From positions 4,117,783-4,149,782 of the forward strand of contig JALDRA010000001.1 in the NCBI GenBank assembly GCA_031316235.1: a DNA stretch of 32,000 nucleotides, given 5' to 3'. The position numbers and the translations under genes are program-made. Below the pieces are notes generated by a model. That model had not been told where the DNA came from. It saw only the letters and a list, made by a program, of their open reading frames with translations, and did no database searches. Shown here piece by piece: positions 26,391 through 29,209 of this stretch (positions are counted from its first letter, which is position 1; each line of letters begins with the position of its first letter). The DNA comes from Candidatus Scalindua sp. (GTDB taxonomy: Bacteria; Planctomycetota; Brocadiia; Brocadiales; Scalinduaceae).

Positions 26391-26639
26391 TTATTCTTTT
26401 TGGGGTTGCCGAAGTCGCAAAAGGCAATGATAGTGAAGCATCGCTAAGTCGGCAACCCCGTATTGTTGGAAGTCGTTAGACATTCCTATCTTAGACAAAT
26501 TATCTTCGACCTGATATTGCCCTCCTATCGCAAAAATAGTCTCAAGGCTGCGTCCTGTAAGTCGAATAGATTCAGGATAAACCCGGTCTACTATGATAAG
26601 GATCAGTCTTAACGATTCCCCTCGGGACCTTCCGGGCAC
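26391..26639 (-). pseudogene. out-of-frame continuation of the repeat protein (extra ..I-VDRVYPE..RL module)
   Basis: The 82-aa ORF overlaps the end of 26609..27319 in another frame. It carries ESLRLILIIVDRVYPESIRLTGRSLETI, a clear copy of EELVLIEAIDRVYPELRLVDRVAFVREV in the upstream protein (DNA GACCGGGTTTATCCTGA versus GACCGGGTGTATCCGGA). Confidence 0.5.
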
Positions 26640-27319
26640 ATATCTTTCTCAAATCGGCGGAAATGTGCTGGCTCCATCACTTCAGGCCGTATACGCTTAC
26701 GGAGGACTTCCCGAACAAAGGCCACTCGATCCACAAGACGCAACTCCGGATACACCCGGTCGATCGCCTCAATTAGCACCAACTCCTCAACGGCAATGGC
26801 TATTCCTGGATCGAACCAATGCGCTGGTTCTTGCCATTCCCGTCCCTGTTTCAGCACTTTACCACCGAAACCGACCACTGATTTAAGTTGGATGTCAGTT
26901 ACGAGTCTTTCCTTGACGAAGTGGGCAGGCTCCATCCAGTCGGTTCTCAGTTTCAAGTTGAGTGCATCGAACCAGATTAAGTACAGATTGTAGTTTCCCG
27001 CCGCGACCTTCCATGGATACGGCGATGGTCCAAATACTTTGGATAGTTCCTTATCGAAAAGCGTATCTTTGAGGTGTTCCGACCCCATACAAACACGCTT
27101 CTGTTCACCTTTGTCTCCAACCTCTAACAAGACCGGCACGGTAGTAGTTACAACAAACCCGATTTGCCGGGAAACTCTGTCGAAAACATTGTCTATTTCC
27201 TTCTGGTATTTTTCCCGAATGTTTTTGTATATAATGGTCAAATCATCATACAGTTTGACGACTGCCGGATGAGCTGGTTCAACCCAATCGCGTATATGTG
27301 CAAATGTTTTTTCTTCCAT
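26609..27319 (-). CDS. repeat protein with four W-x-EPAH-[FW] motifs; no family recognised
   Basis: 236 aa with a good SD (GGAGGTG, 6 nt before the ATG). The motifs are DWVEPAHP (aa 12-19), DWMEPAHF (127-134), EWQEPAHW (161-168) and EVMEPAHF (213-220). The EPAH codons are at 27269-27280, 26921-26932, 26819-26830 and 26663-26674. It lies 111 bp downstream of, and co-directional with, the radical SAM gene. Confidence 0.75.
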   Translation of the reverse strand: MEEKTFAHIRDWVEPAHPAVVKLYDDLTIIYKNIREKYQKEIDNVFDRVSRQIGFVVTTTVPVLLEVGDKGEQKRVCMGSEHLKDTLFDKELSKVFGPSPYPWKVAAGNYNLYLIWFDALNLKLRTDWMEPAHFVKERLVTDIQLKSVVGFGGKVLKQGREWQEPAHWFDPGIAIAVEELVLIEAIDRVYPELRLVDRVAFVREVLRKRIRPEVMEPAHFRRFEKDMCPEGPEGNR

Positions 27320-27430
27320 AATTGCACCTCCGTATGTTATGTAATATAAAGTTAAAATATACTAGTCTTTCTCTTGCCTTGTGCTCATACATTCCAGGTA
27401 CTCTGTGGGTTAGCGCAGGAAAATGGTGTT

Positions 27431-29209
27431 TCACCCCCTTTCTTCTTTTTGCTGAGCCAGTCGGTTCTTAAACATGTGATATGGAATCGGCGCCGGCGTC
27501 ACCCCCAACAAGTCTGTCTCATTCATCCATTCGAACCCTGGTGTCAAAAACTCCAACTTCTCCAGACTCTCCAGGCCGTAGTAAGGCATAGGTTTGCAGT
27601 TCAGGAAGGGCAGAGACACCATATTTGACACAAGCCTCGATGCACCGGCAGCCTGGCCACGACGATCGTACGTGTTACCCAACCAGCGCAGAATGCGCTC
27701 GCCTTGAGCGTGTAGATCCCTGCTCCTCTCGTCAACCTGTTCACGCATCTCTCGGGCAAAGCCCCGTATTATGACATGATCGTTTGTATCTGCTGTCGCC
27801 ACGAAGTCGTAAATCTGGCACAGGCACTCGTACGTATCCAGGTTTGTCCGCTTAATAAAGTTGCGCACAGATGCACGCAGCGACTGCGTTAGCACTTCCG
27901 GATAGAACCGCCGCAATAGCTGGAAATAGAAGTCCACCTGCATGTTGAAGTAGTGCAATCCGAAATCGCTGAAATTGCGATCAAAGAAGGCGTAGTTGGC
28001 AATTTGGTGAAAAGCCTCAGAGCGCGGGTCTTTGAGCCGGTAATCGAATCCAAAGTAGTCGCCAAGCAACCTGCCTTCAGCCTGCAGTTTCGCCTCTAAC
28101 CCGGTACCGGGGTAAGCCTCTGCACGACAGAAGTTGAACGGATTATCGATGTGCCGTTCAATGAAGTGTAAGTTGACCAGGATATCCTCTAAAACCGTGT
28201 CAGGCTCGAACATGAGTAAGTTAAAGGCGAGGTGAACATCGAAATCATTGAGAATGCGCAGTGCGTTCAGTATCTGATCGAGAGTACATTTGCGGTTCAG
28301 GTTACGCAGCCCATTTTCATGTGCGTTTTCAACTCCTAAGAATACTCGAAACAGCCCCAAGTCGTCCAGCACGCGGATCGAGTCGCAGGTAATGCTGTCG
28401 GGCCGCGCCTTGACTGCTATAGCAATCCCCTCGATTCCTTCCTGCTGCAGTCTGGCCCGCAGTTCCTCAAAGCGGCGAAGCGCCTTCTCCGGTTTTGGGA
28501 GAAAGAAATTGTCATCCTGAAAATTAAAGATACGAACATCATGATGAAAGTAGAGATCCTTCATCTCTGTCACGATGTTCTCCACGCTTCGTACCCGAAA
28601 CTTCTTTCCACCTCCCCTTTCGTACCAGGCGTTGATGCTGCAAAAGGCGCAGTTACGCCAGCATCCCCGGCTGGTCAGGATGCTCGCAATGGGCTTATCG
28701 AAGTATTCATGGAATGTTATACGTTTTGGGAACGGTAATGCGTCGAGATTATCTTGATTGCCGGTTGTAAGGTTGGTTGTTACTGATCCATCAGATTTTC
28801 GGTAGCAAAGGCCGTGTACCCTGGTTAAATCTTCCAGATGGTCGGCCAATGCGCAAACAAGCTGTTCGCCTTCTCCCAGGCAGACCGAATCGAATGCGGG
28901 AAAATCCCGGAGTAGATGTTCCGAATTGAACGATGCAAATGGACCACCGGCGATCAGGTGACCACGGTAACTCCCTTCCCGGAACGCTTGCGCCAGATGG
29001 CAAAATTCTCGTGCACGGCCTGTGAACATCATAGACAAACCGATGATTTGAGGTGAAAAGGTGATCACCTGCTTTACTGCACCAGATATGTCAAACTCTG
29101 AATTGAAAGGAACGATTTCCACTTGATGTCCTTTGTGTTCTAATGCAGAGGCTATGTATCGCAGACCAAGGTTTTCTTCCAATTCTGCACCTACCAATGC
29201 AACTTTCAT
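27431..29209 (-). CDS. B12-binding-domain radical SAM enzyme (class B) with a long C-terminal extension
   Basis: 592 aa. The N-terminal cobalamin-binding domain reads MKVALVGAELEENLGLRYIASALEHKGHQVEIV...PQIIGLSMMF. The radical SAM cluster motif is SRGCWRNCAFCS (C183-x3-C187-x2-C190, complement of 28640-28663). About 250 residues of C-terminal domain of unknown role follow. Confidence 0.9.
   Translation of the reverse strand: MKVALVGAELEENLGLRYIASALEHKGHQVEIVPFNSEFDISGAVKQVITFSPQIIGLSMMFTGRAREFCHLAQAFREGSYRGHLIAGGPFASFNSEHLLRDFPAFDSVCLGEGEQLVCALADHLEDLTRVHGLCYRKSDGSVTTNLTTGNQDNLDALPFPKRITFHEYFDKPIASILTSRGCWRNCAFCSINAWYERGGGKKFRVRSVENIVTEMKDLYFHHDVRIFNFQDDNFFLPKPEKALRRFEELRARLQQEGIEGIAIAVKARPDSITCDSIRVLDDLGLFRVFLGVENAHENGLRNLNRKCTLDQILNALRILNDFDVHLAFNLLMFEPDTVLEDILVNLHFIERHIDNPFNFCRAEAYPGTGLEAKLQAEGRLLGDYFGFDYRLKDPRSEAFHQIANYAFFDRNFSDFGLHYFNMQVDFYFQLLRRFYPEVLTQSLRASVRNFIKRTNLDTYECLCQIYDFVATADTNDHVIIRGFAREMREQVDERSRDLHAQGERILRWLGNTYDRRGQAAGASRLVSNMVSLPFLNCKPMPYYGLESLEKLEFLTPGFEWMNETDLLGVTPAPIPYHMFKNRLAQQKEERG

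Follow-up and report, generated by a model that had tools for sequence, protein, structure and literature searches.

A class-B radical SAM enzyme encoded beside a protein with repeated EP[AV]H motifs: a candidate enzyme–substrate cassette in Candidatus Scalindua and beyond

What does a cobalamin-binding radical S-adenosylmethionine (SAM) enzyme act on when the gene next to it encodes a small protein with one short motif repeated four times? The question is raised by 32,000 nucleotides (nt) of DNA from Candidatus Scalindua sp., a marine anammox bacterium (contig JALDRA010000001.1, positions 4,117,783 to 4,149,782), a stretch referred to here as the window. Cobalamin-dependent radical SAM enzymes carry out some of the hardest C–H functionalizations in biology, and to our knowledge substrates are known for only a small fraction of them. 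Peptide and protein C-methyltransferases of class B act on specific polypeptide residues, some of them iteratively at many sites. Both the enzyme class and the encoding of a radical SAM enzyme beside its polypeptide substrate are known already. We propose that in the window a dedicated class-B radical SAM enzyme modifies E-P-[A/V]-H (EP[AV]H) sites on its neighbor, the EPAH-repeat protein, and that the modification is retained on that protein. We put the probability of this reading at roughly 55%.

The two genes lie on the minus strand, a detail that the preliminary description of this locus left unstated:

27431–29209, minus strand: class-B (cobalamin-binding) radical SAM gene, 592 amino acids (aa), from the open reading frame (ORF) list
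27320–27430, minus strand: intergenic spacer of 111 nt, read from the sequence, with the radical SAM gene upstream and the EPAH gene downstream
26609–27319, minus strand: gene for the EPAH-repeat protein, 236 aa, from the ORF list

In all other respects the arrangement is as first described, including a separate Shine–Dalgarno sequence for the smaller gene (GGAGGTG at 27331–27325, 5 nt ahead of its ATG). The spacer contains no terminator-like hairpin, and all matches from a consensus scan lie inside coding regions. The exact protein sequences are on record from a metagenome-assembled genome (MAG) of Ca. Scalindua sp. as MDR4506543.1 (‘B12-binding domain-containing radical SAM protein’) and MDR4506542.1 (‘hypothetical protein’). 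DNA similarity to Brocadia (locus L003) covers window positions 26608–29226, from the EPAH stop codon to 17 nt upstream of the radical SAM gene. The block shared with Brocadia is therefore exactly the two genes, and it is the gene pair that moves or persists as a unit. In the closest relative (L006), DNA homology runs on to 26332, past the point at 26608 where that to Brocadia ends.

The domain composition of the enzyme supports its class assignment:

28847–29179, minus strand: B12-binding (Rossmann-like) domain, aa 11–121 (PF02310, E 1.3e-16, 60.9 bits, cutoff 32.1)
28202–28678, minus strand: radical SAM core, aa 178–336 (PF04055, E 4.9e-17, 63 bits, cutoff 29.5)
28640–28663, minus strand: CxxxCxxC motif for the [4Fe-4S]/SAM cluster, C183, C187 and C190, from the translation
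27800–28192, minus strand: family-specific C-terminal domain, about aa 340–470, no Pfam match, delimited by alignment conservation

The CxxxCxxC motif, correctly placed at aa 183–190 from the start, is invariant in all three cysteines among 46 orthologs. Because only two further cysteines are conserved in these sequences (C135 and C361), the enzyme appears to have no SPASM-type auxiliary cluster; it shows neither a Cys-rich C-terminal motif of the SPASM/twitch kind nor a SPASM Pfam match. Residues 351–450 form the most conserved part of the alignment (mean column conservation 0.85–0.88), and orthologs from 45 species loci are 59–89% identical to the window enzyme. No NCBIfam model reaches its cutoff. 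The best scores are those of HpnR (TIGR04367; 103.5 bits against 650), BchE (TIGR02026; 90.4 against 481), HpnJ (TIGR03471; 88.3 against 578), ladderane-associated TIGR04072 (87.6 against 360) and the PoyC-like maturation C-methyltransferase TIGR03975 (86.7 against 281.85), which acts on peptides that are synthesized ribosomally and modified post-translationally (RiPPs). The glutamine C-methyltransferase of methyl-coenzyme M reductase (MCR), TIGR04014, scores 63.4 bits against 360. Source annotations of the orthologs (‘anaerobic Mg-protoporphyrin cyclase’, JGI ‘BchE cyclase’, ‘YgiQ’) are generic automatic labels. Judged by these profiles and alignments, the 592-aa protein belongs to a distinct, unnamed subfamily of class-B radical SAM enzymes.

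Two more specific identities were rejected. A ladderane-lipid radical SAM enzyme of anammox bacteria is disfavored by a score far under the cutoff and by orthologs in Acidobacteriota, Desulfobacterota, Bathyarchaeota and other phyla. An MCR glutamine methyltransferase is disfavored by its sub-cutoff score and by a family distribution mostly in bacteria that lack MCR. The nearest solved relative by sequence is OxsB (E 7e-12 over aa 28–352), and Foldseek searches with an AlphaFold2 model of the enzyme retrieve OxsB (4.5e-13) and TokK (4.6e-9) at about 16–17% identity. Similarity to these structures predicts cobalamin binding and SAM radical chemistry. The model has a predicted local distance difference test score (pLDDT) of 62 overall and 80–93 in the B12-binding domain; its C-terminal region is partly of low confidence and uninterpretable.

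The partner protein matched nothing in Pfam, NCBIfam or PADLOC. Its family profile, run against PDB sequences, returned only spurious matches to hemagglutinin HA2 (E about 0.1), and the best Foldseek match of its AlphaFold2 model in the PDB, to C-terminal domains of TonB/TolA, was not significant (E 0.48). The protein thus stands outside the recognized families; none had been recognized for it from its sequence either. A word-indexed search found at least 694 homologs, all unnamed or ‘hypothetical’. When 1.84 billion representatives were searched exhaustively with a profile, 178 family members emerged, counted at 50% identity clustering, with 153 below 1e-10 and no tail of distant relatives; a scan of viral contigs found no relatives. 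The family is small, compact and sharply bounded. Full-text literature searches for the motif and for comparable systems of a B12-radical SAM enzyme and a repeat protein found no description.

Four copies of the motif, the last two 52 aa apart, had been reported in the 236-aa protein, and all four are present as reported. Conservation below refers to an alignment of 25 homologs down to 48% identity (A1):

27269–27280, minus strand: EPAH motif 1, aa 14–17, RDWV-EPAH-P; all four residues invariant; edge of the low-pLDDT N terminus
26921–26932, minus strand: EPAH motif 2, aa 130–133, RTDWM-EPAH-F; E130, P131 and H133 invariant; start of the low-pLDDT linker 128–164
26819–26830, minus strand: EPAH motif 3, aa 164–167, EWQ-EPAH-WFDP; E164, P165, H167, W168 and F169 invariant; end of the low-pLDDT linker
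26663–26674, minus strand: EPAH motif 4, aa 216–219, IRPEVM-EPAH-FR; nearly invariant; low pLDDT

Motif peptides of 10–12 residues are exemplified by IRPEVMEPAHFR. Across all six frames of the window EP[AV]H occurs at these four sites only, and composition predicts 0.32 occurrences for the window and 0.002 for the protein. With four copies against 0.002 expected and no other match in six frames, the observation is confirmed.

The tetrapeptide is also constant across the family, in line with the expectation that homologs would keep it. In 268 family sequences we counted EPAH 833 times, EPVH 85 times, EPAQ or EPVQ 28 times, EPPH 10 times and DPAH 3 times, so that Glu and Pro are almost never substituted. 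The flanks are lineage-specific: R-x-D-W-x, VRPEV-x, FRPPP, WPG[TI]R, PW[MCT] or YDVQ may precede the motif, and F, W, Y, P or other residues may follow it. Copy number varies as well. Of the 120 closest homologs, 87 carry four copies and another 24 carry five to seven; distant representatives of at least 200 aa have 0 to 12, mostly 3–5. Some members carry tandem EP[AV]H arrays with a period of about 8–22 aa, a dense example being ‘...HRPWC-EPVH-TPWM-EPVH-HRPWC-EPVH...’. The arrays of one 12-copy member are tandem repeats at the DNA level with 92–97% identity, and they are therefore recent expansions. Canonical sites 2 and 3 have turned into EPAQ or EPVQ in some lineages, in which new EP[AV]H copies are found elsewhere in the protein.

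The predicted structure of the partner (mean pLDDT 72) consists of a confident core and looser segments. The core comprises a long helix (18–53), a small sheet and helices up to 124, and helices at 177–208, with pLDDT 82–95 over residues 21–120. Low confidence is confined to residues 1–13, 128–164 and 215–222, falling below 50 at 215–217, and the linker between motifs 2 and 3 (134–160) varies in length and sequence among homologs. A constant tetrapeptide with shifting flanks and copy number, placed in low-confidence variable segments, points to a short linear site on flexible segments rather than an element of the fold or a fixed metal center. This evidence goes beyond the preliminary description and favors a modification or recognition site over a structural motif. 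We also considered the motifs as ExxH ligands of a di-iron four-helix bundle and rejected this: each includes a Pro, their positions fall in low-confidence segments and not in the predicted helices, and their number is variable.

One element of the preliminary description did not hold. A longer module had been assigned in common to the last two motifs; the module, EELVLIEAIDRVYPELRL, occurs once in the protein, at aa 177–195 between motifs 3 and 4. A weak second copy lies beyond the stop codon:

26550–26606, minus strand: weak out-of-frame echo of the ‘IDRVYPELRL’ module, directly 3' of the EPAH stop codon (tblastn)

This echo, LILIIVDRVYPESIRL, is 60% identical over 20 aa (E 0.9) and is possibly the remnant of a decayed extra repeat unit. 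We do not regard an 82-aa ORF at 26391–26639 (minus strand) as a gene, since it runs into the end of the EPAH gene in a different frame and carries only the weak module echo. The interval given to the finding starts at 26391 because the echo falls inside this spurious ORF. A second family module, roughly ‘P-x-P-[ED]-P-W-x(3)-[LM]-x-E-I-A-x-V-[LM]-x-[KR]-Y-G-[YF]’, forms the C-terminal tail of many members. It is present in P0174, P0235, P0156 and L063:5832–7202 and in the tails of P0018, P0038, P0092 and others in A1; it alternates with EP[AV]H units in long variants and is lacking from the Scalindua and Brocadia proteins.

Is the pairing a property of the family or an accident of this genome? 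We scanned one genome per species, covering 185,579 species, and found 47 loci. They span Brocadia, Phycisphaerales, Nitrospinae, many Acidobacteriota, Anaerolinea, Verrucomicrobiia, Geobacter, Syntrophobacterales, Syntrophorhabdales, Chlorobium, Bathyarchaeota, anaerobic methanotrophic archaea of clade 2 (ANME-2) and Methanoperedens, that is, about ten phyla or groups (Planctomycetota, Nitrospinae, Acidobacteriota, Desulfobacterota, Chloroflexota, Chlorobiota, Verrucomicrobiota, Bathyarchaeota, ANME-2 and Methanoperedens). In 45 of the 47 species genomes the EPAH gene has an ortholog of the radical SAM gene beside it on its own strand; in 44 of these 45 that ortholog lies upstream, with alignment ends about 35–364 nt apart. 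Of the two exceptions, one is cut off by a contig end and the other is an N-truncated copy (L048). The latter, at 8001–8573 of its locus, corresponds to query residues 47–230 and sits beside molybdopterin-binding oxidoreductase genes with no radical SAM gene; it is probably a decayed or secondary copy. The sole inverted order occurs in an ANME-2 MAG (L007, 187–3057), where the EPAH gene lies upstream on the same strand with a gap of about 360 nt.

The association persists at the margins of the family and in the reverse direction. Three highly divergent multi-copy EPAH variants each have a radical SAM gene directly upstream. Conversely, radical SAM orthologs on long contigs are followed by an EPAH-family gene in three of three cases (with 6, 12 and 4 motifs). 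Synteny with B12-radical SAM genes, which had been anticipated for the homologs, is thus found from both sides. Across loci, pairwise identity in one protein is correlated with that in the other (r = 0.84, a value reached by none of 999 Mantel permutations); the enzyme is the more conserved of the two (mean pairwise identity 65% against 50%). Clustering of all neighboring ORFs across loci yielded no third recurrent gene family, and the neighborhoods examined held no conserved RiPP recognition element (RRE), protease, exporter or transporter. The radical SAM enzyme and the EPAH family form a reciprocal, self-sufficient, co-evolving two-gene cassette, distributed patchily over about ten phyla of mostly anaerobic bacteria and archaea.

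These data bear directly on the simplest explanation of the locus, namely that insertion sequence (IS) activity joined two unrelated genes in this genome, one of them perhaps a low-complexity repeat. In the window the block does lie between an IS66-type remnant on the left and an IS701-type element on the right, as had been described and as matches to PF03050 and PF13546 bear out. Its GC content of 0.47–0.52 exceeds the roughly 0.40 of the flanks, again as described, though the region at 16–17.5 kb is equally GC-rich. The IS flanking is peculiar to this genome, however: elsewhere the pair is found among unrelated housekeeping genes by Pfam annotation, mostly free of IS elements, in bacteria and archaea alike. 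Together with the excess of motif copies over expectation and their family-wide invariance, this makes coincidence extremely improbable, and we regard chance adjacency as effectively refuted.

In a few genomes the pair has company. Brocadia (L001–L004, 6196–13645) and a Geobacter MAG (L034, 8802–12980) encode beside it a caspase-like (C14) peptidase and a 789-aa protein that is rich in Cys and matches nothing in Pfam, and Brocadia additionally has 223-aa and 140-aa hypothetical proteins nearby. All four neighbors are absent from the Scalindua window. At the level of clustered species loci the peptidase is linked in only these two, with a short fragment match in B. carolinensis (L005). The peptidase and its companions may represent an optional addition to the cassette, such as a processing protease. 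We rejected the 789-aa, 223-aa and 140-aa proteins as components of the system proper, for they carry no EPAH motifs and are unconserved save in the one Geobacter MAG. A defense or toxin–antitoxin system, suggested by restriction–modification, SNF2 and caspase-like neighbors in Brocadia, was likewise rejected given ordinary housekeeping contexts elsewhere and no support from PADLOC, in which the enzyme has only a generic 40-bit match to PDC-M51A and the EPAH protein none.

The Brocadia and Geobacter peptidases would suit a reading in which the EPAH protein is a multi-core RiPP precursor, from which unlinked proteases would cut modified EP[AV]H units to release many small modified peptides or a peptide-derived cofactor. 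Short invariant cores in tandem arrays of variable number are typical of such precursors, and the motif is frequently bordered by Arg or Lys (R at −5 or −1; ‘EPAHFR’ or ‘EPAHYR’). Yet the linkage to the peptidase is confined to those loci, and neither a protease nor a transporter is conserved with the pair. No signal peptide is evident in the EPAH protein, and its conserved folded core of about 140 residues far exceeds the usual leader. We therefore consider release of small peptides improbable.

The reading we prefer instead places the function in the intact protein. The radical SAM enzyme would dock on the folded core of the 236-aa protein, which would play a role like that of a leader peptide. 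It would then iteratively modify one residue in each exposed E-P-[A/V]-H tetrapeptide, these being carried on flexible segments in the manner of beads on a string. The functional product would be the modified protein itself and not a released peptide. By family, motif and synteny checks, computation supports the earlier suggestion of an undescribed enzyme–substrate (or enzyme–scaffold) module. The 236-aa protein is most likely the substrate of the radical SAM enzyme, to judge from these checks, and its modification would probably be iterative.

The chief competitor retains the obligate partnership and reverses the roles. Here the radical SAM enzyme would act on an unlinked small molecule, lipid or other macromolecule, and the EPAH protein would serve as a scaffold, as an activator or chaperone, or as a His/Glu-based carrier of metal or corrinoid. 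Strict pairing and co-evolution suit any obligate complex, and a well-folded conserved core is what such a subunit might be expected to have. The best NCBIfam matches of the enzyme (about 88–103 bits) are to the small-molecule and lipid enzymes HpnR, BchE and HpnJ and to ladderane-associated TIGR04072, and small molecules are the substrates of OxsB and TokK, its nearest solved structures. Metallochaperones, moreover, can carry His-rich repeats in variable number. An accessory role leaves several features of the motif unexplained, however. These are the near-absence of substitution of Pro and of Ala/Val between Glu and His, the swings in copy number from 3 to 12 by recent tandem duplication, and the loss of His (EPAQ) at canonical sites in proteins that have gained EP[AV]H elsewhere. 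No conserved metabolic neighbor hints at a small-molecule pathway, and in alignment A1 the EPAH protein has neither a conserved Cys nor a DxHxxG-type corrinoid motif. We judge an accessory role unlikely overall, though a serious contender.

Several considerations temper our proposal that the EPAH protein is modified by its neighbor. Sequence data alone do not separate a substrate from a tightly bound partner. The conserved folded core is unusual for a simple peptide precursor and would be compatible with an accessory subunit as well, and the neighborhoods lack a conserved RRE, protease or exporter. The enzyme scores far below the cutoffs of all NCBIfam models for peptide-modifying B12-radical SAM enzymes. 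The low pLDDT at the motifs could be due in part to the shallow alignment of 25 sequences used for the prediction, and the co-evolution signal could be explained by co-inheritance alone.

Comparison with characterized systems helps to place the pair. PoyC-type RiPP methyltransferases (TIGR03975) and the MCR glutamine C-methyltransferase (TIGR04014) share with the window enzyme the N-terminal B12-binding domain, the radical SAM core and the single CxxxCxxC. In contrast to both, the window enzyme scores below their cutoffs and possesses a conserved C-terminal domain of its own. The dedicated partner, a protein of 210–480 aa, combines a folded core and an EP[AV]H repeat and is neither a leader–core peptide nor a metabolic enzyme. 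OxsB and TokK are its closest solved relatives by sequence and fold; they are small-molecule enzymes in biosynthetic clusters, whereas no comparable cluster is linked to the window enzyme. Compared with a generic RiPP system, adjacency and co-evolution of the enzyme and its putative precursor are very strong here, but a leader–core layout with a linked protease or exporter is missing. In the biphenomycin-type RiPP pathway, a B12-radical SAM enzyme introduces cross-links within a short conserved motif, FHAFRF, of a ribosomal peptide; that cluster also requires an oxidative enzyme dependent on multinuclear non-heme iron (MNIO), an RRE partner, an arginase and a hydroxylase, and its precursor is short (PMC12257519). 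The likeness to the pair proposed here lies in the enzyme class and in a short motif containing aromatic residues and His; it is one of kind and not drawn from sequence comparison. The pair in the window, by contrast, comprises no more than two genes, and its motif recurs along a protein. Bufferins are described as protein-sized RiPPs that are modified by MNIOs and chelate copper (PMC12452194). They offer a conceptual parallel, by analogy only, in that an enzyme-installed side-chain modification gives the mature polypeptide its function; they differ in using an MNIO instead of a radical SAM enzyme, in targeting Cys and in cellular location. The radical SAM subfamily, the partner family, the EP[AV]H motif and the two-gene architecture of a folded scaffold with repeated sites and no protease or exporter appear to be undescribed in the libraries and literature that we searched.

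Given that most characterized class-B enzymes are methyltransferases, C-methylation is the prior expectation and would be the most likely chemistry. A C–C or C–X cross-link, for example from Glu to His or between His and an aromatic residue, is possible, because the B12-radical SAM enzyme of the biphenomycin pathway cross-links aromatic residues. The modified atom is not deducible from sequence. By analogy with bufferins and with His/Trp octarepeats, we speculate that the product might be a His/Glu-based metal- or cofactor-binding protein of anaerobes. Extending the proposal, we tentatively suggest, with slightly less than even confidence, that EP[AV]H bears a new post-translational modification (C-methylation of His, Pro or Ala, or a Glu–His cross-link) installed many times per scaffold. 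The result may be a metal- or cofactor-binding ‘bead string’, and the cassette would have spread by horizontal transfer among anaerobes including anammox bacteria, ANME/Methanoperedens, Bathyarchaeota and peat Acidobacteriota.

The remainder of the window is rich in mobile elements. The boundaries of the block are formed by the following features:

23309–24202, minus strand: IS66 N-terminal remnant, left
25652–26287, plus strand: IS66-family transposase C-terminal remnant, left boundary (PF03050, profile positions 121–283 of 284, E 2.6e-21)
30727–31998, plus strand: DruA/DUF4338-like domain followed by the start of a DDE_5 (IS701-type) transposase, right boundary (PF14236, E 3.5e-33; PF13546, E 7.9e-9)

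Between the two IS66 fragments lies an orphan D12-class N6-adenine DNA methyltransferase gene with a DPPY motif (24571–25236, minus strand) and no evident restriction partner. The frame at 30727–31998 includes only the first 56 or so residues of the DDE_5 transposase and continues past the window end; its DruA/DUF4338-like domain is also Mom-like. A fragment directly upstream of the radical SAM gene (29337–29726), the putative transposase remnant of the preliminary description, has no Pfam match. Further left are a DDE_3 transposase with its helix-turn-helix ORF (20315–21447, minus strand) and a DDE_Tnp_1_4 transposase broken into ORFs 21720–22094 and 22101–23135 (plus strand), a split indicative of a frameshift or an in-frame stop. 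A repeat of about 140 nt is dispersed in both orientations, with 72–92% identity (3636–3777, 4791–4929, 11089–11203 and 15766–15908, also 10736–10849 and 11614–11678) and looks like a miniature inverted-repeat transposable element or a repetitive extragenic palindromic sequence. A separate 96-nt repeat is 92% alike at 13938–14033 and 18003–18098. Two further ORFs have partial assignments. A 346-aa ORF (19074–20114, plus strand) has a sub-threshold match to alternative-oxidase-like (di-iron) proteins (E 3.7e-4), and a 522-aa ORF (16024–17592, minus strand; GC 0.52–0.54) has both an APH-like kinase region and an AAA_33/zeta-toxin-like P-loop domain.

The pair constitutes a minimal testable system, with one enzyme, one linked candidate substrate and a putative target of four residues, and it is conserved from anammox bacteria to methane-oxidizing archaea. 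If our proposal is correct, it would add a new post-translational modification and a new recognition logic for class-B radical SAM enzymes, in which a folded docking core is combined with repeated short sites. It would also give a function to a family of at least 694 ‘hypothetical proteins’. The occurrence of this cassette in anammox bacteria, ANME archaea and peat Acidobacteriota hints at a physiological role in environmentally important anaerobes.

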